Source: a virus (lineage: Duplodnaviria; Heunggongvirae; Uroviricota; Caudoviricetes). Taken from it: DNA of 30,936 nucleotides. Below are positions 5,413-29,886 of this stretch, piece after piece; the first letter of the stretch is position 1; every line of letters begins with the position of its first letter. The translations under genes were made by a program, and so were the position numbers. The stretch lies in the IMG/VR virus record IMGVR_UViG_2671180778_000015; one strand, 5' to 3'. The notes under the pieces were generated by a model. The model searched no databases, was not told the origin of the DNA, and saw only the letters and a program-made list of their open reading frames with translations.

Positions 5413-6603
5413 TTAATTGCTGTTAACCGAGGTGACCAGATTTGCCAGGTATTTATCGGTAATACGCTGGCGCAGGGTCAGGTTTTCGAGAGGAGGCACC
5501 GGGGTATAGTCGTAGTCGATATACAGTTTTCCGGCCTTAAGGGTTTCCGCATCGTTGGATTCTTCGCTGAACCAGCAGGTCGCATCCACGATATAGCCGT
5601 TTGTTTTCAGCTCACGGAATTTGGCATTGATGCCGTCAACGATGTCGCGAATCAGCGTTGCGGTGATGGGCTTGTCCACCGCCCACATATGCGCCTCAGC
5701 CATCGTGTCGGCCAGCACCTGCGCGGTGCGGGTGTAGTTTTCAAAGATGAACAGCGGGTCATCAGAGCAGGTACGGTTACCCCAGAAGCGGAAACCGTCG
5801 CGGCGAATCAGCGTTGTGACGCCTGACTCGTTCAGCAGGTCAGCATCGGTGCCGGACTCCTGCAAATCCCAGAATACAGAGGTGCTGATGCCGGTAACAC
5901 CGTTCACCCCGACATTGGACAGCGTTTTATGCCAGCCCTGCTCCTGGTCAATTCTGGCTCGCAGACCCAGCGCACGGGCGGTGGCATATGCGGTGGCGGT
6001 GGTACTGGTGACCGTATCCCATGCGAGGAAATCCGGCCAGATGACCATCAGCTCACGCTGGCTGAAATTCTGGCGGTAGGCTTTCACCTCGGAAATGGTC
6101 TTACAGCCCCATGCGCTGATATATCCGAAAGCGCGCAGCTTCTGACAGACTGATGCCAGTGCAACAGCCACCTCTTTGGTATCCAGCCCCGGCACACCAA
6201 GAATACGCGGTTTAACACCGGTTACCGACTCTGCCGCCAGCAGAGCTTTCAGTCCGGTGTACTGACCATTTTCGTCGGTGGTGCCGATGATATTGGAAAC
6301 GGTCTGCGCGAGTTTCGTTTCTTCGTCGTCGCCGGTGCCGTCTTCCACACGCACGACAACGGTGACCGGTTTTGACTGGTCAGCGATGGCCTGCAGCGAC
6401 GCCGCCAGCGTGCCTTTTTTACCGGCCTTTGCAATTGCGCTCTGCACATTGGTAATCAGCACCGGTTTATTGAGGGGGAAGATTTCCGCCTCCGCATCGC
6501 TGGCCGTGCAGACCATGCCGACAATGGCAGTGGATACAGTGGAAATGACGCGGGTGCCGTCGTTAATCTCCAGCACCTGCACGCCATGATGATAGTCGCT
6601 CAT
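5413..6603 (-). CDS. FI: contractile tail sheath protein FI, 396 aa
   Basis: 396 aa as P2 gpFI; sequence MSDYHHGVQVLEINDGTRVISTVSTAIVGMV recognised; ATG verified at 6601-6603. Confidence 0.92.
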   Translation of the reverse strand: MSDYHHGVQVLEINDGTRVISTVSTAIVGMVCTASDAEAEIFPLNKPVLITNVQSAIAKAGKKGTLAASLQAIADQSKPVTVVVRVEDGTGDDEETKLAQTVSNIIGTTDENGQYTGLKALLAAESVTGVKPRILGVPGLDTKEVAVALASVCQKLRAFGYISAWGCKTISEVKAYRQNFSQRELMVIWPDFLAWDTVTSTTATAYATARALGLRARIDQEQGWHKTLSNVGVNGVTGISTSVFWDLQESGTDADLLNESGVTTLIRRDGFRFWGNRTCSDDPLFIFENYTRTAQVLADTMAEAHMWAVDKPITATLIRDIVDGINAKFRELKTNGYIVDATCWFSEESNDAETLKAGKLYIDYDYTPVPPLENLTLRQRITDKYLANLVTSVNSN

Positions 6604-6969: not shown

Positions 6970-7674
6970 TTATTCTTGTTTTTTTGGTGGCCTTGAGTGT
7001 TTTTCTGGTAGTTTTTCTACGATTTTAAAAATGTTATTATCTTTTAGTATTGTTCGCATTACAAAGCTTTCTATAACAGCCAAAAGCGATTTAAATTCAT
7101 CTTCGCTCGGTGCCCATGCCCTATGTGCAGCTGAGTTGCCAGCTTCAGTTACAATTTTAAGTTGCTCTTTTTCTTTTTCCCCGATAAAACCTTCATCTTT
7201 GAGAATATCAACTTTCTGGCTTAATGTATGCCCGGGGTGAATATCCAGAACCTCAACAGTTCTGTCAAAAATAGTTCTAAGCCCAATCGCCGCCAAAATG
7301 AATGATTTATTTTGAAATGCGATATACATTTCGTTCATTATTACATATAGCTGATAATCTTTGCTTAGCACCTCACCAAACCAATCAGGTCTAATTTCAT
7401 CCTGTTCTTGAGCAGGATATATTGATATATGCTCGTTATATATCATAAAATCATGCCCCGAGCCATCCCTTTCTATGTCGTAATCTTCACTGTGACGGGA
7501 CTTTATATATGTAAATATTCCATCACACCCCATACACTCTAATAAATTATATTCACTCTCAGCCCAAAAATAGTTATCCCCATCATTTTTACTCCACTCT
7601 CTTTTTTTATGACCTATTGTGAGACAATTTTTTTCACCTTTACAGTATGGGCAAGGTGCTTTAATTTTTTCCAT
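6970..7674 (-). CDS. cargo (moron) protein at the Z/fun position: N-terminal Cys4 zinc ribbon (CPYC...CMGC) plus C-terminal domain of unknown function, 234 aa
   Basis: ORF in a visibly AT-rich about 1.3 kb insert between FI and G, the known P2 Z/fun accessory locus. ATG at 7672-7674. Four Cys in two CxxC pairs (residues 8/11 and 47/50). C-terminal motif GNSAAHRAW faintly recalls a DUF4145/Abi-like signature (not verified). No resemblance to P2 backbone proteins. Confidence 0.6.
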   Translation of the reverse strand: MEKIKAPCPYCKGEKNCLTIGHKKREWSKNDGDNYFWAESEYNLLECMGCDGIFTYIKSRHSEDYDIERDGSGHDFMIYNEHISIYPAQEQDEIRPDWFGEVLSKDYQLYVIMNEMYIAFQNKSFILAAIGLRTIFDRTVEVLDIHPGHTLSQKVDILKDEGFIGEKEKEQLKIVTEAGNSAAHRAWAPSEDEFKSLLAVIESFVMRTILKDNNIFKIVEKLPEKHSRPPKKQE

Positions 7675-19647: not shown

Positions 19648-21420
19648 ATGACCATCACCACAGACACCACTCTTTTACACGACCCGCGTCGTCAGGCGGC
19701 GCTGCTGTACTGGCAGGGGTTTTCCGTGCCGCAGATTGCCGCCATGTTGCAGATGAAACGCCCGACGGTGCAGAGCTGGAAACAGCGCGACGGCTGGGAC
19801 AGCGTTGCCCCCATCAGCCGTGTCGAAATGAGTCTGGAAGCGCGGCTGACCCAGCTCATCATCAAACCGCAGAAAACCGGCGGTGACTTCAAGGAAATTG
19901 ACCTGCTGGGACGCCAGATTGAACGACTGGCACGGGTAAACCGTTACAGTCAGACCGGCAACGAGGCAGACCTTAATCCGAACGTTGCTAACCGCAACAA
20001 AGGCGGGCGGCGCAAACCGAAAAAGAATTTTTTCAGTGACGAGGCCATCGAAAAGCTGGAGCAGATTTTCTTTGAGCAGTCTTTCGAATATCAGTTGCAC
20101 TGGTATCGCGCCGGGCTTGAGCACCGCATCCGCGATATCCTGAAATCCCGCCAGATTGGCGCGACGTTTTATTTTTCCCGCGAGGCGCTGCTGCGCGCCC
20201 TGAAAACAGGTCATAACCAGATTTTTCTGTCGGCCAGTAAAACGCAGGCGTATGTGTTCCGCGAATACATCATCGCCTTTGCCCGTCTGGTTGACGTTGA
20301 CCTGACCGGTGACCCGATTGTCCTGGGCAATAACGGCGCAAAACTGATTTTTCTCGGCACCAACTCCAACACCGCGCAGAGCCATAACGGCGACCTGTAC
20401 GTCGACGAGATTTTCTGGATTCCGAATTTTCAGGTGCTGCGTAAGGTGGCATCAGGTATGGCCTCACAGAGTCACCTGCGATCGACCTATTTCTCCACCC
20501 CGTCCACGCTGGCGCACGACGCCTACCCGTTCTGGTCGGGTGAACTGTTCAACCGGGGACGCGCCAGCGCCGCCGAACGCGTGGAAATCGACGTCAGTCA
20601 TAACGCCCTTGCCGGTGGGCTTCTCTGTGCGGACGGCCAGTGGCGGCAGATTGTCACCATTGAGGACGCCCTGAAAGGCGGCTGCACGCTGTTCGACATT
20701 GAGCAGCTCAAACGCGAAAACAGCGCCGACGATTTTAAAAACCTGTTCATGTGTGAATTTGTTGACGACAAGGCGTCGGTGTTCCCGTTCGAGGAGCTGC
20801 AACGCTGTATGGTCGACACGCTGGAAGAATGGGAAGACTATGCGCCGTTTGCCGCAAATCCGTTCGGCTCCCGCCCGGTATGGATTGGTTACGACCCGTC
20901 ACACCGTGGCGACAGCGCCGGATGCGTGGTGCTGGCACCGCCGGTGGTGGCCGGTGGCAAATTCAGGATCCTTGAGCGTCACCAGTGGAAAGGCATGGAC
21001 TTTGCCACCCAGGCAGAATCCATCCGCAAACTCACCGAAAAATACAACGTCGAATACATCGGGATTGATGCCACCGGCCTCGGTGTCGGTGTGTTCCAGC
21101 TCGTGCGCTCGTTCTATCCCGCCGCTCGCGATATCCGCTACACGCCGGAAATGAAAACCGCAATGGTGCTCAAGGCAAAAGACGTTATCCGCCGTGGCTG
21201 TCTGGAATATGACGTCAGCGCCACCGACATCACCAGCTCGTTTATGGCTATCCGCAAGACCATGACCAGCAGCGGACGCAGCGCCACCTATGAGGCCAGC
21301 CGCAACGAGGAAGCCAGCCACGCCGACCTCGCCTGGGCGACCATGCACGCCCTGTTAAATGAGCCACTCACCGCCGGTATCAGCACTCCGCTGACATCCA
21401 CCATTCTGGAGTTTTACTGA
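19648..21420 (+). CDS. P: terminase large (ATPase) subunit P, 590 aa
   Basis: Trimmed to the MTITTDTTLLHDPRRQAALLYWQGF start (ATG 19648-19650, GGCGAGG upstream) gives 590 aa as P2 gpP; stop overlaps the Q start (ACTGATG). Confidence 0.9.
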   Translation: MTITTDTTLLHDPRRQAALLYWQGFSVPQIAAMLQMKRPTVQSWKQRDGWDSVAPISRVEMSLEARLTQLIIKPQKTGGDFKEIDLLGRQIERLARVNRYSQTGNEADLNPNVANRNKGGRRKPKKNFFSDEAIEKLEQIFFEQSFEYQLHWYRAGLEHRIRDILKSRQIGATFYFSREALLRALKTGHNQIFLSASKTQAYVFREYIIAFARLVDVDLTGDPIVLGNNGAKLIFLGTNSNTAQSHNGDLYVDEIFWIPNFQVLRKVASGMASQSHLRSTYFSTPSTLAHDAYPFWSGELFNRGRASAAERVEIDVSHNALAGGLLCADGQWRQIVTIEDALKGGCTLFDIEQLKRENSADDFKNLFMCEFVDDKASVFPFEELQRCMVDTLEEWEDYAPFAANPFGSRPVWIGYDPSHRGDSAGCVVLAPPVVAGGKFRILERHQWKGMDFATQAESIRKLTEKYNVEYIGIDATGLGVGVFQLVRSFYPAARDIRYTPEMKTAMVLKAKDVIRRGCLEYDVSATDITSSFMAIRKTMTSSGRSATYEASRNEEASHADLAWATMHALLNEPLTAGISTPLTSTILEFY

Positions 21421-22454
21421 TGAGCAAGAAAAAAGGGAAAACACCGCGACCAGCGGCAAAAACAATGACCGCCAGCGCCCCGAAAATGGAGGCATTCACC
21501 TTTGGTGAGCCGGTGCCGGTACTCGATCGCCGTGACATTCTGGATTACGTCGAGTGCATCAGTAACGGCAGATGGTATGAGCCACCGGTCAGCTTTACCG
21601 GTCTGGCAAAAAGCCTGCGTGCTGCCGTGCATCACAGCTCCCCGATTTACGTCAAACGTAATATTCTGGCCTCGACATTTATCCCGCATCCGTGGCTTTC
21701 CCAGCAGGATTTCAGCCGCTTTGTGCTGGATTTTCTGGTGTTCGGTAATGCGTTTCTGGAAAAGCGTTACAGCACCACCGGTAAGGTCATCAGACTGGAA
21801 ACCTCACCGGCAAAATATACCCGCCGTGGTGTGGAAGAAGATATTTACTGGTGGGTGCCGTCCTTCAACGAGCCAACACCTTTCACGCCCGGCTCCGTGT
21901 TTCACCTGCTGGAGCCGGATATCAATCAGGAGCTGTACGGCCTGCCGGAATATCTCAGCGCCCTTAACTCTGCCTGGCTGAATGAATCAGCCACGCTGTT
22001 CCGCCGCAAGTATTACGAAAACGGCGCACATGCCGGATACATCATGTACGTCACCGATGCCGTGCAGGATCGCAACGATATCGAAATGCTCCGCGAAAAC
22101 ATGGTGAAGTCGAAAGGCCGCAACAACTTTAAAAACCTGTTTCTCTATGCCCCACAGGGGAAAGCCGACGGCATTAAAATTATCCCGCTCAGTGAAGTGG
22201 CAACGAAGGACGATTTTTTTAATATCAAAAAAGCCAGCGCCGCTGACCTGCTGGACGCGCACCGCATCCCCTTTCAGTTGATGGGCGGCAAGCCGGAGAA
22301 CGTCGGGTCGCTGGGCGATATTGAGAAAGTGGCAAAGGTCTTTGTCCGCAATGAGCTTATCCCGCTACAGGACAGGATCCGCGAGATAAACGGCTGGCTC
22401 GGCCAGGAAGTCATCCGCTTTAAAAACTACTCACTGGACACTGACAACGGCTGA
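21420..22454 (+). CDS. Q: portal (capsid vertex) protein Q, 344 aa
   Basis: 344 aa as P2 gpQ; follows P; ends near cos as in P2. Confidence 0.9.
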   Translation: MSKKKGKTPRPAAKTMTASAPKMEAFTFGEPVPVLDRRDILDYVECISNGRWYEPPVSFTGLAKSLRAAVHHSSPIYVKRNILASTFIPHPWLSQQDFSRFVLDFLVFGNAFLEKRYSTTGKVIRLETSPAKYTRRGVEEDIYWWVPSFNEPTPFTPGSVFHLLEPDINQELYGLPEYLSALNSAWLNESATLFRRKYYENGAHAGYIMYVTDAVQDRNDIEMLRENMVKSKGRNNFKNLFLYAPQGKADGIKIIPLSEVATKDDFFNIKKASAADLLDAHRIPFQLMGGKPENVGSLGDIEKVAKVFVRNELIPLQDRIREINGWLGQEVIRFKNYSLDTDNG

Positions 22455-22459
22455 ACATC

Positions 22460-22481
22460 GCCGCCTGCGGGCGGCTTTTTT
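22460..22481 (+). terminator. rho-independent terminator after Q
   Basis: GCCGCC tgcg GGCGGC stem-loop followed by TTTTTT, 6 nt after the Q stop codon. Confidence 0.7.
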
Positions 22482-22623
22482 ACAACCCGCCATCACGCCC
22501 TCACACGCTCACCACCGCACAAAACAGCCCGCAGACACACCAACGCCCCGGCGAACAATCTAAACGCCATCACGACGCGCTCAGACGCTGAAAAAATAAA
22601 ATCAGCACCACCGCCAGCGCGCA

Positions 22624-22642
22624 GTGCTTTCCCCGCCTCGCC
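22624..22642 (-). other. cos: cos site (19-nt cohesive-end sequence GGCGAGGCGGGGAAAGCAC on the minus strand)
   Basis: Plus strand GTGCTTTCCCCGCCTCGCC at 22624-22642 is the exact reverse complement of the 19-nt P2 cohesive end as I recall it; located just beyond Q as on the P2 map. Confidence 0.7.
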
Positions 22643-22802
22643 CGCCCGCTTCGTGGGGCGGTTTTAATGCAGTTGCATGAGTACACTGATTCCAGGCCAG
22701 CCCTAGCGGCGAAAAGCCAGAACAGACAAAACGGATGTATGCAAAATCATGCACCTAATGTATGCGTAGCTATAAAAAGGGGAAACGGCGGATAAATGGC
22801 AT

Positions 22803-22829
22803 AAAACCGGCATCCAGTATGCCGGTTTT
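22803..22829 (-). terminator. bidirectional hairpin terminator downstream of the cargo operon
   Basis: AAAACCGGCAT ccagt ATGCCGGTTTT: perfect 11-bp stem flanked by an A-run and a T-run; 22 nt beyond the stop of the 207-aa membrane protein gene. Confidence 0.7.
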
Positions 22830-22850
22830 ATTATGCTGAACCATTTGGTG

Positions 22851-23474
22851 TTATTTGGATAACTTACCCTTAATATAATCAACAATTCCCATAATCAGTT
22901 CACTTAGAGGGGTTGCCAACTCAATACTCTCATTTGCTCTTTGCCCTGGTTGGTTTTTATCGGTCGGATGATGAAACGCAGACTTAATGAGTGTAAGGAT
23001 TAAGGTCAAGCCAACACCAAGGATAAATGCAACTATAGCAATCAATGAACTGGCAGAAAGCCAGTCCGTAGATAAGTTACCCATAGCCTTATCATTTTTG
23101 TCGAGATGGACACTTTTTGTGGCTACTGGTTTTACAGACTCTGATTTCGACTCAGAGCATTCCCCCTTTAATTCGCAAACATCTTTTTGAGTCTGAGTCT
23201 GAGTCAAAGCTGAAACGATATTACTTTTAGCCTGAAGTAATCCATTACCAACTTTAAGAGCAAAGCACAAACCAACTACTAAAAACAAAATTGCAATAAG
23301 CAAAGCTATGCTCGACACAATCAAACGCATCCATCTCCGCTCGATAGCATCATGCACATCTCTACGTAACAAAATATCGGGATCACTATCCCCACGAGGA
23401 GTTGACGTAGGTGGTAAATTAGAAGGTTGAGGTGACTGAGCCGGAGATTGCCCAGAAAGATCTATTTCTGCCAT
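22851..23474 (-). CDS. cargo protein: 2-TM membrane protein with Pro/Ser-rich N-terminus, 207 aa, function unknown
   Basis: ATG at 23472-23474; two hydrophobic helices (about residues 50-75 and 138-160) separated by a polar Cys/Lys/Ser-rich loop; AT-rich codon usage unlike the phage backbone; co-directional with and 67 bp downstream of the ImmA-like gene; followed by a terminator. Confidence 0.6.
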   Translation of the reverse strand: MAEIDLSGQSPAQSPQPSNLPPTSTPRGDSDPDILLRRDVHDAIERRWMRLIVSSIALLIAILFLVVGLCFALKVGNGLLQAKSNIVSALTQTQTQKDVCELKGECSESKSESVKPVATKSVHLDKNDKAMGNLSTDWLSASSLIAIVAFILGVGLTLILTLIKSAFHHPTDKNQPGQRANESIELATPLSELIMGIVDYIKGKLSK

Positions 23475-23541
23475 AAAAAATCACCATTATCTTAATAGAT
23501 AATGGTGATTCTAAACTGGTTTGGGAAAAGTTAAAGGGCTA

Positions 23542-24027
23542 TTAGTAAGCCATACCCAGCCCTTTTAGTCGCCAGTGCATCGCTGCTTCCGATACATTAA
23601 ATATGTTGGCTAAACGTAAAGTACTATCAATTCCTTCACGAGATACCAACTGACGGATGGCATCTTCAGGCATCAATAGTTCTGCGGCAAACTGGTTAGC
23701 TTCGATTTCACGGTAATCACGAATACCTGTTGAATAGTTGCCCACACTATCGCGATGAAACTCACCATCCTTCGTATGCCCCAAAACGTGATGAGCTAAC
23801 TCATGCGCTACTGTAAAGCGTTGACGGTTATAGTGCTCGGTTGAATCGAAATAAATCCTAGGCACGCCATTTTTAATTACTGCCAGACCACTTAACCCAT
23901 CGTTGTTAAACGCCGACTCCGTGAGTGCCTCCACTCTTGCTCCCCATGCTGCGGCGAGTTTAAACGGATCGACAGGTAGTCGGCGATCCCAGTAGCGACT
24001 AAGCAGATTTTTAGCTGCAATACTCAT
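23542..24027 (-). CDS. cargo protein: ImmA/IrrE-family (COG2856/DUF955-type) zinc metallopeptidase, 161 aa
   Basis: HEXXH motif in FTVAHELAHHVLGH followed by EIEANQFAAELLMPEDAI, the pattern I associate with ImmA/IrrE peptidases; strong RBS (GGAGGCACC ATG); AT-rich locus between cos and gene A. Confidence 0.7.
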   Translation of the reverse strand: MSIAAKNLLSRYWDRRLPVDPFKLAAAWGARVEALTESAFNNDGLSGLAVIKNGVPRIYFDSTEHYNRQRFTVAHELAHHVLGHTKDGEFHRDSVGNYSTGIRDYREIEANQFAAELLMPEDAIRQLVSREGIDSTLRLANIFNVSEAAMHWRLKGLGMAY

Positions 24028-24062
24028 GGTGCCTCCTACATTTGAAGTTAAAGGGATACAGC

Positions 24063-24089
24063 CTTATCACAGTTGTTATTTTTCGTCAA
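24063..24089 (-). promoter_or_regulatory. candidate sigma70-type promoter for the ImmA-like/membrane protein operon
   Basis: Minus strand reads TTGACG, then a 17-nt spacer, then TAAGGC about 45 nt upstream of the ImmA-like ATG. The -35 is good, the -10 is weak. Purely sequence-based. Confidence 0.3.
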
Positions 24090-24746
24090 GACTGTTTTTA
24101 CGCCTTTACTATAACACTAATCCACGTTTTCCCATAACATTTTTGACATCACCTATGCATTCATTTCTGCACACAGCACTATATCTTTGATGATAACAAC
24201 CGATGAATACTTGTGATCAGCTTATGTTTTGTAAAAATCTTATAAATCAAAATATTGAGATCAAAAAAATCACTAACGCCTCGCGTAGCGAGTGGTTAAA
24301 CCTTGGTGATACTTAAAGCAAATTTCAGCACCACCATCGCTCCATAACTACCATAACAATATGATTTTAATATGATTGATGACGTTATTTTTAAGTGCCT
24401 ATTCAGTTAGGCTACATCGTATTGTGTATTTTTCAATCACTGACAAATTTAAAAAATTTAGACTGCTTTCAAGGCCTTATCATCCGTAGCCTCTGTTTTT
24501 TACTTTGAGCTATATCAAAAAAAGCTCAAACATCCTTGATGCAAAACCAGTATTACACAACATAAAATGCAGCCAGAAACAACGACATACTATATGTTGT
24601 GTTGTTCAGGCTCTCTGTTCGGTGATGTGCCAGATCACTTTGCGTTTAAACAGAGCATTATTTCAGGGCAAGACTTCGCTCAATAGTCACTCCGCCTTAG
24701 AAGCGCATATACCGGCGGAAGTTGCCCTCTGCTTACAGGAGGCAAT

Positions 24747-24860
24747 ATGAAGAAGTGCTACTACTGCATTCTCGTTCTGGCTCTCTTTGGCTATCCAAAC
24801 GGTAGTCCGAGTGGTTTGTCAGTAAACGTCAGTAATATCCATGTAAGTATTTTTCTTTAG
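24747..24860 (+). CDS. small hydrophobic peptide ORF, 37 aa (MKKCYYCILVLALFGYPNGSPSGLSVNVSNIHVSIFL)
   Basis: Not in the supplied ORF track (below size cutoff); hand-translated. AGGAGG 5 nt upstream of the ATG; TAG stop 12 nt before a strong hairpin terminator; hydrophobic N-terminal half. Could be a small toxin or leader peptide; no recognised family. Confidence 0.4.
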   Translation: MKKCYYCILVLALFGYPNGSPSGLSVNVSNIHVSIFL

Positions 24861-24872
24861 TATGCTTCAAAC

Positions 24873-24902
24873 AAAAAAACCACCTGCCAGGGTGGTTTTT
24901 TT
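24873..24902 (+). terminator. rho-independent (bidirectional) terminator
   Basis: AAAAAAA CCACC tgccag GGTGG TTTTTTT: GC stem extended by an A-run/T-run pair; follows the 37-aa ORF and precedes the 3' end of gene A on the opposite strand. Confidence 0.75.
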
Positions 24903-25162
24903 GCGCCCGTCATCAACCCGATGAAAGACTAGCAAGACTTCGCTCGAGACGAATTATGCTTCGACAGAAGGTCACTCGCAATGATTTTATTAGCCGAAAT
25001 AGATGCTCTTTTATGACTCGCATCAAATAGCTGCCTTCAATTACATGCTAGCGATTCCATACAATTTAGCCTTTTAATTCAGCATGCTATTGACCTTCCT
25101 CTGCCTTAGAGTCGCTCCACATAAACCATTCAAAGGCATATCAAATCACGTTGTGTTTTTAC

Positions 25163-27439
25163 TCAAATGGATAACAAAAATCCCGGCCACTCATCAGCGA
25201 CCGGATACGTGAATTTTTTCCCGTCATAATTTACGGTCGCGCCACGCGCCAGCGCCTCAAGCTCCCATCGCTGCGGCCTGATACCGTTCTGAGCAAGGTC
25301 AACGCGGATACGGGTAATTTGCATTCTTTCCGACCGGGTCAGTCTGGCCGATGGTGCAATTTCATGTGGTTTTAACGGGCTTCCGTTTCTTTGCTGACGG
25401 TTTGGCGTTCGCAGGTCGTGTTTTAATGCGCCCCTGAGCGCCCTCACGACCTCCGGTTCATTCCATTCAATAACACCGTCATCAACCAGATTAAGCACTG
25501 CTGCGGCGTGCTCAGAAGGTGTGGGAGCCGGTAACGAAGTATCACCACCGGTGACCTTTCCACAGTTATTGACAGGACTCCGAGGCGCGGCGATGCCGCT
25601 TTTTAAAGTCAAAGGCTCAACGACCGGCACTTTCGGCACAATGCGCCAGTCCGTGGTTCTGGTGATATGAATATGACGCGCGCCGAGATGCGGCGCGTAA
25701 ATGCCGACCACTCTCTCGACTTCTTCCTCGTACTCGTTAACGTCATCCGACGGGCTACGGGCGACTCTGACAGTCTGACAATCGCGCGGAACATTTGCCC
25801 CACCCTGCGCGCTGATATACAACGCAAAATCACCACTGTCTGCGGCGGCGCGTGCAGCCTCGACGCGCTCGTCAAACTCATCAGCAATGCTGACGCCGCG
25901 AGGCAATTTGCGTAGTTCACGGTAAGCCCCCATTGTCGGCAGGCCAACCGTTTTAAATTGCGGGATGCGCCACGTTGACGCCCATGCGGTAACAGCCGCC
26001 GCTGTGTCTTTCAGCGGCCTGCCGGTATCGTTATCGAGCTGACCATCCAGCGCATAGCCGTCGATGTTTTTTGAGATGTATTTCGCGATATATCCCGCAG
26101 CACCGCCCCGGTTAAGGTGTTTTGCCTGAAAACGGTTTCGCGCGGCTCCTCTTTCGTCGCCATCCTCTTTGAGCGCATAGCGACGCATGATTTCGATAAT
26201 CTGGTTACGCTGGCGTGGATTACAAAAAAGCATCATATGCCAGTGCGGCGTTCCGTCGTGGTGTGGCTCAACAACACGCAAACCATAAGCCTGTAAATCA
26301 TTATCCTTGAATGCCGTGCGCATCAGGCTCCAGATACGGCAGAGATAACGCTGCGCATCTTTTGGATTAAATGCCTCATCGTTCCAGCCGTGATTAAGCT
26401 GGACGGTTTTACTTTCACCTTTTCCGACCTGACGTGTCGGGTGATATTTTGACGGCGTGGTCAGCGTGATAAACATCCCTACATCACCCTCTGCAGCGGC
26501 GTAACGCTCAATACCGGCGATGGTGTTCATCAGCTCCATCCGGCGAATTTCAGGATTAGAAATACTGCCCATAACCTTACTGATAAGGTCGATGCGTTCG
26601 CCGGTTTCCCTGTTTTCAAGGTCACACGATTTAAGAAATTCCAGATTTGCCTGGCGGCGCGCACGCACATCACGAATGGCATGTTTACTGGCATAAGGAG
26701 AACGGTCTTTATTCACCTCCCCGACAGCAATCAGTAACGCCTCATGCCAGCGCATACGCTGGCCTTTAAGCTGATGAGTCCACCACTCATCGTTAAACAG
26801 ACGGGCAATGGCAGAATATGCCTGCCTCGTGGTCATCTGTCCTTTACGGTATTTTTTCCAGTAGAGAGGGGAAATATTGAAAGCACGTGCAGCGCCAGCA
26901 ACATGACCATACAGGTGAGCCTGCGCCTCATCCGTAAACAGCGATTCTTTTTCGCCATGCGCATCCACCCAGGCATCGCAGAGTTCCTCATACATCATGA
27001 AAAGCTGCGATGAGATACGGGCGGCAAACTTTTTCAGCTCCTTGTCATTCATTCCAGGCAGGCGCGCATAGTGGTCACGCTCTGCCAGAAACAGCAACGA
27101 CGCGTCGGTGTTCATTTCATGGCGCTGATTCACACGCTCAATACGCGGCCATAAACGACGCTGAAAAGTGGATGTGAGGAAATAAAACCCGTGTACCGGA
27201 CTTTTATTGCGCCGGATGTAGTCATAGCGTGAAGTAAACAGCGAGCGCAAAAAGTAAGGCAGGCGGTTAATCGTGGATAAAACACCTTGCACCTGACGCA
27301 TCTCGTCACGTGTAAGGGGTCTTTCGCGCCCGACGGCCTCGCGTGGCGCGTTCCATGCATAAGCACCGGTAAACGCCTTACCGGTGCCTGCAGCAAATGC
27401 TGAAGGAGGGACAAAACGCCCGGAGGCTTTAACGGCCAT
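25163..27439 (-). CDS. A: replication initiation protein A (rolling-circle endonuclease), about 758 aa
   Basis: Long ORF in the position of P2 gene A with sequence I recognise as gpA (MAVKASGRFVPPSAFAAGTGK..., HxH-type rolling-circle motif region GTPHWHMMLF). The ORF-track start at 27481 is a TTG; the first ATG (27437-27439) gives the P2-like N-terminus, so I use it. The C-terminus differs from P2. Confidence 0.85.
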   Translation of the reverse strand: MAVKASGRFVPPSAFAAGTGKAFTGAYAWNAPREAVGRERPLTRDEMRQVQGVLSTINRLPYFLRSLFTSRYDYIRRNKSPVHGFYFLTSTFQRRLWPRIERVNQRHEMNTDASLLFLAERDHYARLPGMNDKELKKFAARISSQLFMMYEELCDAWVDAHGEKESLFTDEAQAHLYGHVAGAARAFNISPLYWKKYRKGQMTTRQAYSAIARLFNDEWWTHQLKGQRMRWHEALLIAVGEVNKDRSPYASKHAIRDVRARRQANLEFLKSCDLENRETGERIDLISKVMGSISNPEIRRMELMNTIAGIERYAAAEGDVGMFITLTTPSKYHPTRQVGKGESKTVQLNHGWNDEAFNPKDAQRYLCRIWSLMRTAFKDNDLQAYGLRVVEPHHDGTPHWHMMLFCNPRQRNQIIEIMRRYALKEDGDERGAARNRFQAKHLNRGGAAGYIAKYISKNIDGYALDGQLDNDTGRPLKDTAAAVTAWASTWRIPQFKTVGLPTMGAYRELRKLPRGVSIADEFDERVEAARAAADSGDFALYISAQGGANVPRDCQTVRVARSPSDDVNEYEEEVERVVGIYAPHLGARHIHITRTTDWRIVPKVPVVEPLTLKSGIAAPRSPVNNCGKVTGGDTSLPAPTPSEHAAAVLNLVDDGVIEWNEPEVVRALRGALKHDLRTPNRQQRNGSPLKPHEIAPSARLTRSERMQITRIRVDLAQNGIRPQRWELEALARGATVNYDGKKFTYPVADEWPGFLLSI

Positions 27440-27704
27440 ATGAGCCAAAAGCCTCTGAACAACGCCTGCTGAGTTGCTCAACCTGCGCGTTTAAATCAGC
27501 AAAAGACTTTGCGCTTCCGGTCAGAATATCGTGATGCATCAGGCCGGAAACGAGCTGGCTTAATTTCGGATAATAACCAACCACCGCAAGCCATTCCTGA
27601 CCGGCGTTTTTACCGCTTTCCGCTCTCTTTTTCTCGTGGAGAATAAACTGAAAGCTGTCACTGGTAACGACATAACGTTCGCCAATTTCAATACGAATAC
27701 TCAT
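27429..27704 (-). CDS. early-operon small protein (P2 orf83-like), 91 aa
   Basis: Position immediately upstream of A in the B-A operon; size and order match the small ORFs between B and A in P2. Confidence 0.6.
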   Translation of the reverse strand: MSIRIEIGERYVVTSDSFQFILHEKKRAESGKNAGQEWLAVVGYYPKLSQLVSGLMHHDILTGSAKSFADLNAQVEQLSRRCSEAFGSYGR

Positions 27705-29592: not shown

Positions 29593-29886
29593 ATGAAATT
29601 AAGCGAAAAGATTAAGGCCTTGCGTGAGGCTGAAGGGCTAAGCCAATCAAAATTCTGTGAAATCATAGAGTTACCGCTAAGCACACTTAAAAAATATGAA
29701 GGAGGAAACTTTGAACCCGGTGGCACAGCTTTGCTAAAAATCACTATGCATCCCACATTCCAAAAATATGCTCTATGGCTTATGACAGATAAAACCGCGC
29801 CGGACGCAGGACAAATCGCACCGGCTCTCGCGCACATTGGGCCAGAGTCAACAGAGTCCAACCACTCCGCGAAAAGGATTGGCTAA
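29593..29886 (+). CDS. C: immunity repressor C, 97 aa
   Basis: Divergent from cox and upstream of int as in P2; C-terminal segment GQIAPALAH matches my recollection of P2 C, while the N-terminal DNA-binding part differs. Confidence 0.75.
   Translation: MKLSEKIKALREAEGLSQSKFCEIIELPLSTLKKYEGGNFEPGGTALLKITMHPTFQKYALWLMTDKTAPDAGQIAPALAHIGPESTESNHSAKRIG

Follow-up and report, generated by a model that had tools for sequence, protein, structure and literature searches.

The stretch of DNA analyzed here (the window; 30,936 nt; IMG/VR record IMGVR_UViG_2671180778_000015, Caudoviricetes) is a P2-like prophage that carries a two-gene cassette between its portal gene Q and its replication endonuclease gene A. 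The first gene of the cassette encodes a metallopeptidase and the second encodes a membrane protein with two transmembrane (TM) helices. The cassette is almost certainly the Peptidase_M78 plus two-TM cargo of the cos-proximal (old/tin) hotspot of P2, known as system #21 of Rousset et al. (2022), and one instance of a wider module. In other words, it was catalogued and tested before and is therefore not a new discovery. The features newly noted here are a hairpin in front of the membrane-protein gene, a short motif in the N-terminal tail (N-tail) of the membrane protein, and a synteny that is wider than the P2 hotspot. Judged from the genomes and replicons searched, the pair is a rare, horizontally mobile two-gene module of Proteobacteria that reaches well beyond P2. 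Our tentative explanation of its role is that the protease gates a tightly repressed membrane effector, the two forming an abortive-infection, exclusion, or toxin-antitoxin (TA)-like module.

The gpQ-gpA (Q-A) hotspot was surveyed in 18,150 E. coli loci (Rousset et al. 2022, PMC9122126). Table S5B of that study lists the P2-hotspot system #21 as "Peptidase_M78", with the note "2 TM in protein 2", in 148 of the 18,150 loci; its representative is the variant of many other E. coli genomes (an example is our locus L002). Table S2B lists the plasmid pFR104 as "Peptidase + TM" from the P2 locus of E. coli TA280. Protein 1 of pFR104 and the window peptidase are identical at 161 of 161 positions. Protein 2 is the membrane protein of the window, but annotated from M49 and with one more TQ repeat. 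Table S2B displays the first ~400 nt of the cloned interval, and at two of these positions the window has a different base. The primers used for cloning correspond to the 3' ends of A and Q; the whole interval was therefore cloned with its native promoters in a low-copy pSC101 vector. A preliminary description of the window, made from its sequence, had taken the module for a candidate undescribed one with an unfamiliar gene arrangement; both entries of Rousset et al. overturn that view. No functional study of the pair beyond this one was found in the literature searched.

The remaining structural claims of the preliminary description held up well. Open reading frames (ORFs), Pfam, hydropathy, and AlphaFold2 (AF2) models bear out a 161-amino-acid (aa) ImmA/IrrE-like peptidase and a 207-aa two-TM protein, encoded on the minus strand in an operon-like order with a spacer of 67 bp. 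The cassette region is AT-rich, as described (GC content of 0.40-0.46 versus ~0.55 in the flanks), and bracketed by terminators that were read from the sequence. It lies at the old/tin site, where the two genes are the sole long ORFs between Q and A and neither old nor tin is present. The absence of an adjacent helix-turn-helix (HTH) partner was also upheld: none was found among the ORFs of at least 20 aa in 24028-25162, where short ORFs were inspected by eye and a 37-aa ORF was also scanned against Pfam. The sole HTH_3 protein is the C repressor of the prophage, 5.6 kb off. A profile search of both proteins, proposed in the same description, placed the peptidase (PF06114 and PADLOC capP) and left the membrane protein without a Pfam or PADLOC family. 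As to the survey of P2-like prophages that it proposed, the pair recurs in those of E. coli, Leclercia, and Salmonella, and copies also occur on plasmids, on chromosomes, and in other prophages.

How widely is the pair distributed? The family of the membrane protein is very small: a word-indexed search returned 39 clusters of it, and an exhaustive hidden Markov model (HMM) search of 1.84 billion proteins returned 58 representatives at 50% identity. The cassette is present in 50 of 5,426 complete E. coli genomes (~1%), and both genes are annotated, with neither flagged as a pseudogene, in all 40 that were listed of these 50. The membrane-protein family was found in 3 of 72,556 plasmid records, one of them from Vibrio, and in 3 phage records. 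In the close relatives sampled, the membrane gene is always preceded by a 161-aa M78 gene at a spacing of 66-70 bp (the value after two mis-called starts were corrected). These pairs reside in P2-like prophages of Leclercia, Salmonella, and E. coli; on the chromosomes of Pectobacterium and Serratia, the latter with an RmrTA system 1.8 kb away; and on Enterobacter plasmids, either beside Rep3/ParAB (L011), beside RepL (L012), or among ShosA, Zeta-like, HNH, YobI-ATPase, and PifA genes. The RmrTA system near the Serratia pair is complete (L009, 8463-10246; RmrT, 8.5e-59; RmrA, 2.7e-145). PifA (4.6e-222) stands beside the pair on one Enterobacter plasmid (L012, 1-1570) and a ShosA-like DprA protein (7.8e-78) on another (L004, 1761-2321).

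Peptidase identity falls from at least 64% in the close relatives to 45-53% in distant ones. In five of five distant lineages sampled, a two-TM protein of 130-195 aa with the same layout is encoded directly downstream of the peptidase; four of these lineages have gene pairs that overlap or are at most 13 bp apart. The distant pairs were found in a Mu-like prophage of Aeromonas, where the endolysin gene follows immediately; in a Pseudomonas aeruginosa prophage, where cI directly precedes the pair; in an Alcaligenes prophage next to int; on a Maridesulfovibrio chromosome; and in Xanthomonas. The Pseudomonas pair is an inserted moron because the same cI is found in isolated phages that lack the pair. 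Pairing of a short M78 protein with a two-TM protein held in every short-M78 relative sampled, across Gamma-, Beta-, and Deltaproteobacteria and on plasmids as well as chromosomes. No adjacent HTH gene was present at any of 14 related loci. In pairwise comparisons, the divergence of one protein is correlated with that of the other (r = 0.91), with the peptidase evolving far more slowly. Strict synteny across distant lineages and replicon types strongly supports joint action of the two genes.

Two further genes accompany some copies of the pair. On Enterobacter plasmids, a 304-306-aa gene without a known family lies ~43 bp downstream of the membrane gene on the same strand (L004, 6631-7545; L012, 6663-7583; both +) and is frameshifted in L005. 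It is either an optional third component or a mere neighbor. The commoner cassette variant of E. coli and Salmonella adds a convergent 313-aa gene (L002, 3426-4367, +; L003, 258-1199, +), whose product has an R-x4-H (HEPN-like) motif, IRNENFHE, and gave no Pfam or PADLOC match; this gene probably forms a single-gene system of its own. The idea that the module includes a third gene was considered and rejected, as the plasmid gene is a pseudogene in L005 and unrelated to the 313-aa gene, and both are absent from the window.

The peptidase is a genuine member of the Peptidase_M78 or ImmA-IrrE (COG2856) family by profile, catalytic residues, and modeled fold, and is predicted to be an active zinc endopeptidase. 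Residues 53-155 match Pfam PF06114 (Peptidase_M78) with 74.9 bits against a cut-off of 22. An HELAH motif occupies residues 75-79 and E107 would be the third zinc ligand; H75, E76, H79, and E107 are invariant in 45 homologues. The top PADLOC match is capP (3e-28), followed by RmrA models, and the protein also matches phrog_87, annotated as "metallo-protease". The AF2 model has a predicted local distance difference test (pLDDT) score of 87. In Foldseek, it matched the protease domains of CapP (7t5t) and IrrE/PprI, with a probability of 1.00 to 7t5t, 8sln, and 3dte and a TM-score of ~0.6 on query length, and the CapP and IrrE/PprI structures were also recovered by sequence search. The peptidase lacks cysteine as well as the second domain of CapP and IrrE. 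Its gene has a strong ribosome-binding site (RBS), GTAGGAGGCA(A)CCATG, that is conserved in 9 loci.

The membrane protein is organized, in order, as a Pro/Ser-rich disordered N-tail, a basic juxtamembrane helix, TM1, a variable loop, TM2, and a C-terminal amphipathic helix. Hydropathy places the two TM segments at residues ~47-82 and 134-168. The AF2 model shows no secondary structure in residues 1-31 (1-17 are below a pLDDT of 50), helices at 32-97 (including TM1), 127-167 (including TM2), and 182-205, and a disordered loop at 98-126. An N-in/C-in topology is suggested by two conserved Cys in the variable loop and by the basic nature of the juxtamembrane segment. Conservation is strikingly uneven along the protein. 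The mean pairwise identity is 38% in the N-tail (1-31, with many indels), 71% in the helix after TM1 (75-92), 29% in the periplasmic loop (93-133, again with many indels), 89% in TM2 (134-166), and 68% in the C-terminal helix (185-207). The poorly conserved N-tail nevertheless bears the motif I-D-L-S-G-Q-S-P, and a form phi-D-phi-S-[GA]-P is kept in 11 of 13 partners. Such a short conserved motif in a disordered tail would be expected of a docking or cleavage site. Near-invariance of TM2, which is rich in small residues, suggests oligomerization or a conserved membrane partner, and the hypervariable exposed loop suggests an arms race. The protein matches phrog_8096 (E = 4e-104), whose function is unassigned there. 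A match to a holin or superinfection-exclusion (Sie) family was sought and only phrog_8096 was returned; the two-TM architecture is compatible with such families, not diagnostic of them.

Two small features of the membrane gene were also observed. An ACTCAG hexanucleotide repeat (23196-23213, minus strand) codes for TQTQTQ in the periplasmic loop, and near-identical alleles have three TQ units in the window, four in E. coli TA280 (pFR104), and five in another homologue (P0002). The repeat number always keeps the frame, and therefore loop length is altered and the gene is not switched off. The second feature is the M49 codon (23328-23330, minus strand) at the cytoplasmic edge of TM1, which is preceded by GGAG, is the annotated start in older RefSeq records, and is conserved in almost all homologues, including those of Aeromonas and Xanthomonas. 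An internal start at M49 that gives a tail-less isoform, as in holin/antiholin pairs, is possible.

The spacer between the two genes can fold into a hairpin with a 16-bp stem whose U-run extends up to the AUG of the membrane gene. A Shine-Dalgarno-like GGUGA (23481-23485) is part of the 3' arm, and the 5' arm is complementary to it. The minimum free energy of the window hairpin is -23.8 kcal/mol (z = -5.4), and none of 200 shuffled sequences folded as well. An equivalent hairpin is present in 10 of 10 loci, namely all Enterobacterales loci and Aeromonas, the latter with a wholly different stem sequence and with AGGUGG as the Shine-Dalgarno-like element of its 3' arm. Across these loci, a stem of 10-16 bp is followed by 4-8 U (6-8 except in L011), and the U-run reaches the AUG or stops one to two bases short of it. 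In the alignment, 97% of cells are paired, compared with 22-70% in slid controls, and three pairs show compensatory changes. The hairpin reads as an intrinsic-terminator-like attenuator that may also hide the RBS of the membrane gene. If so, the membrane protein would be made only through terminator read-through with a masked RBS, at a level far below that of the peptidase.

How might the two proteins act together? Under the gating model, which we favor tentatively, the peptidase would be produced in excess from its strong RBS, and the membrane protein would be kept very low by the terminator-like hairpin that would also bury its Shine-Dalgarno sequence. The membrane protein would be the effector, probably oligomerizing through TM2 and thereby disturbing the inner membrane or blocking something there. 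The peptidase would control it, most likely by docking onto, or cleaving at, the cytoplasmic N-tail motif. The outcome would be a lysogen-expressed abortive-infection, exclusion, or TA-like function with a narrow trigger range. We infer the contact between protease and membrane protein, the toxicity, and the phage phenotype; what was observed directly is gene identities, synteny, the hairpin, the conservation pattern, and neighborhoods rich in defense and TA genes. Several of these observations favor a coupled module: the TA-like gene order and coupling, the apparent repression of the membrane gene, the invariant catalytic residues, and the N-tail motif. Location adds to this, as the P2 site is a known defense hotspot and the neighbors outside P2 include ShosA, PifA, RmrTA, and an HNH nuclease. 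A precedent by analogy may be RmrA, whose M78 domain belongs to a TA antitoxin according to PADLOC models.

A number of results weigh against the gating model. The phage challenge of the cloned segment that the preliminary description had proposed was already made with pFR104, in MG1655, against lambda, T4, P1, 186cIts, CLB_P2, LF82_P8, AL505_P2, and T7, and was apparently negative on this 8-phage panel. Validated systems are given in Table S2A and "additional tested systems" in Table S2B; pFR104 is only in the latter, and the three active systems among eight extra P2 systems tested do not include the peptidase + TM cassette (PMC9122126). According to the same authors, their small phage panel underestimates defense, and about a quarter of P2 hotspots hold maintenance functions and not defense (PMC9122126). 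That the pFR104 clone could be maintained argues against strong constitutive toxicity. The membrane protein gave no significant match to a Pfam, PADLOC, or NCBIfam family and none to a known defense or toxin HMM; its AF2 model is only moderately confident (mean pLDDT of 63), and a Foldseek search of that model against viral structures gave no match (best E = 4.2). Conserved synteny and correlated divergence speak for co-inheritance and not for interaction, and truncated gene calls of each partner exist in public data (P0160, P0059, and P0068).

Among other explanations, the one that survives best, while being unlikely on the whole, is superinfection exclusion: the membrane protein would be of the T4 Imm, P22 SieA, or HK97 gp15 type and would keep the DNA of certain phages from crossing the inner membrane, with the loop as its specificity determinant and the peptidase as a dispensable co-traveler. 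In favor of this are the small size of the protein, its two TM helices in the inner membrane, and the hypervariability of its periplasmic loop, which is rich in indels (29% identity) and lies between conserved helices. The lysogeny or moron positions, directly after cI in the Pseudomonas prophage and beside int in the Alcaligenes prophage, fit as well. In lysogeny modules of streptococcal and lactococcal temperate phages, an ORF with a metalloprotease motif adjoins the sie gene. A narrow spectrum would also explain the negative 8-phage test. However, an unrelated passenger would not stay linked on plasmids and chromosomes of Gamma-, Beta-, and Deltaproteobacteria alike, with stop/start overlap in distant members. 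Exclusion proteins usually need fair abundance, yet translation of the membrane gene appears to be suppressed, and a purely periplasmic function does not predict a conserved cytoplasmic N-tail motif and C-terminal helix.

The negative phage-panel result also speaks for a second, rather improbable explanation: a plain addiction (post-segregational killing) TA pair that stabilizes the prophage or plasmid and has no anti-phage role, in which the membrane protein is the toxin and the peptidase a proteolytic antitoxin. The distant members, with their overlapping or coupled genes, resemble TA operons, as do the gene order and the surplus of the upstream product. Some plasmid copies adjoin replication and partition genes (Rep3/ParAB in L011 and RepL in L012), and the share of P2 hotspots with maintenance functions mentioned above is in line with this explanation. 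On the other hand, post-segregational killing needs a labile antitoxin, a role in which a stable enzyme would be unusual. Hypervariability of the periplasmic loop hints at an arms race with some partner outside, and the pair is rare on plasmids (3 of 72,556 records).

Characterized M78 relatives (ImmA, IrrE, and CapP) all cleave XRE-type repressors (Makarova 2009, PMC2701414), and CapP and IrrE are the structural matches of the window peptidase. These points raise a third explanation, which we consider doubtful as a whole: a split BlaR1-like device in which the two-TM protein responds to an event at the envelope or to injection by freeing or activating the peptidase, which then cleaves an XRE repressor encoded elsewhere. 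In the window, the target would be the C repressor, and the device would be a gene-expression or prophage-induction switch without cell killing. Prophage C is an HTH_3 protein and could be a partner in trans, and the Pseudomonas pair lies within the cI operon. However, the pair is also found on plasmids and chromosomes without such a repressor nearby, and the repressors next to the Pseudomonas and Alcaligenes pairs are S24-type self-cleaving proteins that need no ImmA. Three different C alleles, 54-64% identical, accompany the cassette in P2-like prophages, on which ground a tie of the cassette to one immunity type was rejected. The C allele of the window is ~nine times commoner than the cassette (469 versus 50 genomes).

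A bolder idea, to which we assign only a small probability, is a membrane-gated immune or decision switch of a new kind. Here the hypervariable loop would detect something that a phage inflicts on the inner membrane, for example DNA injection or damage, and signal through TM2 and the cytoplasmic tail to a bound peptidase. The peptidase would respond by cutting its own partner, which would release a pore, or by cutting a target in the cytoplasm, for example an XRE repressor. If true, this would be a split BlaR1-like transmembrane protease relay in phage-phage conflict, spread across Proteobacteria. P2-like phages carry their own lysis cassette elsewhere, and the least credible explanation, that the membrane protein is a holin/antiholin-like lysis-timing accessory processed by the peptidase, is very improbable also because the protein is much longer than class II holins, has no holin family match, and occurs on plasmids and chromosomes without lysis genes, for all that its two TM helices, putative N-in/C-in topology, charged C-terminus, conserved M49 at the start of TM1 (a potential source of a second, shorter isoform), and the endolysin gene next to the Aeromonas pair would suit such a role.

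What makes the cassette worth pursuing? ImmA/IrrE-type proteases are known almost only as XRE-repressor cleavers, and a lineage with a small membrane partner would extend the roles of the family. The cassette could add a protease-gated membrane effector to the prophage-encoded conflict systems, and it is among the more frequent unexplained cargos of the P2 defense hotspot (148 of 18,150 loci). The wider synteny, the putative regulatory hairpin, and the N-tail motif offer concrete handles on what is a moderately interesting target.

The features of the window are collected in Table 1. The window also contains terminase genes, a Cox-like gene, and an integrase gene. The leader of the peptidase gene is a putative promoter region. 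It contains the promoter-like elements TTGACG (24084-24089) and TGtGATAAG (24063-24071) and a further TGTTATAGT at ~24107-24115, and the sequence block with these elements is kept in 5 of 9 loci. A scan for consensus promoters and terminators reported neither this putative promoter nor the terminator of the cassette, whose T-run is interrupted, and an Rfam scan of 22400-25300 gave no match over gathering scores.

Table 1. Positions of the cassette, its regulatory elements, and other features of the window.
Feature	Position	Strand	Description
DUF4145 island	6970-7674	minus	low GC (0.37); 234-aa DUF4145 protein
Tail-sheath-like gene	5413-6603		adjoins the DUF4145 island
Portal gene Q	21420..22454	plus	
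Closing hairpin of the cassette	~22803-22829	minus	intrinsic-terminator-like, AAAACCGGCAT-ACTGG-ATGCCGGTTTT + T-run; read from sequence
Membrane-protein gene	22851..23474	minus	207 aa; inner-membrane, two TM helices
Intergenic hairpin + U-run	23477..23512	minus	16-bp stem; U-run up to AUG of membrane gene
Peptidase gene	23542..24027	minus	161 aa; standalone ImmA/IrrE-type zinc metallopeptidase, Peptidase_M78, protease domain only
Leader of the peptidase gene	24028..24125	minus	promoter-like elements; read from sequence
37-aa ORF	24747-24860	plus	MKKCYYCILVLALFGYPNGSPSGLSVNVSNIHVSIFL
Bidirectional terminator after gene A	~24880-24905		read from sequence
Replication endonuclease gene A	25163..27481	minus	
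C repressor gene	29593..29886		97 aa; HTH_3 protein (XRE-type)

A 1.1-kb AT-rich spacer was considered as part of the module and rejected for the ~470 bp nearest gene A, which are present in ~100 cassette-less genomes, including one with an otherwise empty hotspot. This segment holds the 37-aa ORF, which has a perfect AGGAGG RBS and ends at the bidirectional terminator after gene A. About 150 E. coli genomes contain the ~470 bp around the ORF; one of the copies lies in a P2-like prophage (L020) with nothing else in its hotspot. The frame is intact in L002 and L020, where one or three amino acids differ, and several differences in the part compared in L003 are synonymous. The ORF is not annotated in RefSeq, is annotated as a 114-nt coding sequence in Salmonella phage MET_P1_103_31, and gave no Pfam or Rfam match. 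It may be a gene for a small hydrophobic peptide that is independent of the cassette. A second island of low GC lies upstream of the tail-fibre genes, at a position that we tentatively take to be the second P2 hotspot (Z/fun) of Vassallo et al. 2022. Its DUF4145 protein (Pfam E = 1e-13) has an N-terminal CxxC...CxxC segment and no significant PADLOC match, and the gene is likely to be another accessory or defense-type cargo.

How does the cassette compare with known systems? The PADLOC matches were single-component, for the peptidase only, and none amounted to a complete match to a known defense-system model. Like the peptidase, ImmA is a short protein with no domain other than the protease domain. 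ImmA-ImmR of ICEBs1, IrrE/PprI-DdrO of Deinococcus, and the Xre-COG2856 pairs (Makarova et al. 2009) share with the cassette the M78/COG2856 fold, the HEXXH...E set, and an association with mobile elements. Unlike ImmA-ImmR and IrrE-DdrO, the cassette has no adjacent or fused XRE HTH substrate and has a two-TM partner in its place; unlike IrrE, its peptidase lacks a GAF-like C-terminal domain. CapP of CapP-CapH is both the top PADLOC match and the top solved-structure match (7t5t), but the alignment is confined to the protease domain (profile positions 9-150 of 242), and neither a capH match nor CBASS genes or a downstream immune operon were found at the cassette. Without a second domain, the peptidase has no inter-domain groove for single-stranded DNA as in CapP, and without a cysteine, the "cysteine switch loop" of CapP (PMC13228613) is impossible there. 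The cassette lacks the defining partner feature of ImmA-ImmR, IrrE-DdrO, and CapP-CapH and is therefore a variant of that kind and a member of none.

Other systems resemble the cassette in their logic. In RmrTA, an M78 domain is the controlling partner of a two-gene toxic module, as it would be in the cassette under the gating model. However, RmrA is an HTH-M78 fusion of 360-400 aa, with which the peptidase aligns only in the M78 part (for example, profile positions 146-267 of 363), and RmrT is soluble and unrelated to the two-TM partner, which has no RmrT match. BlaR1/MecR1-BlaI/MecI couple a membrane sensor to a cytoplasmic HEXXH zinc protease, but in a single polypeptide of protease family M56 with a known repressor substrate; this is a working analogy only and no homology is claimed. 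Lambda RexAB, P4 gop-beta-cII, 'Hydrolase + 3TM', and 'RT-nitrilase + 1TM' (Rousset 2022) are likewise found in hotspots of prophages or satellites and join the gene of a cytoplasmic enzyme or sensor to that of a small multi-TM protein, and in them the membrane effector is the presumed killing or blocking part. They have no sequence relation to the cassette and, unlike it, confer a demonstrated phage phenotype. With system #21 and pFR104 of Rousset et al. (2022), in contrast, the cassette shares both the Q-A locus and the proteins themselves, and nothing material differs.

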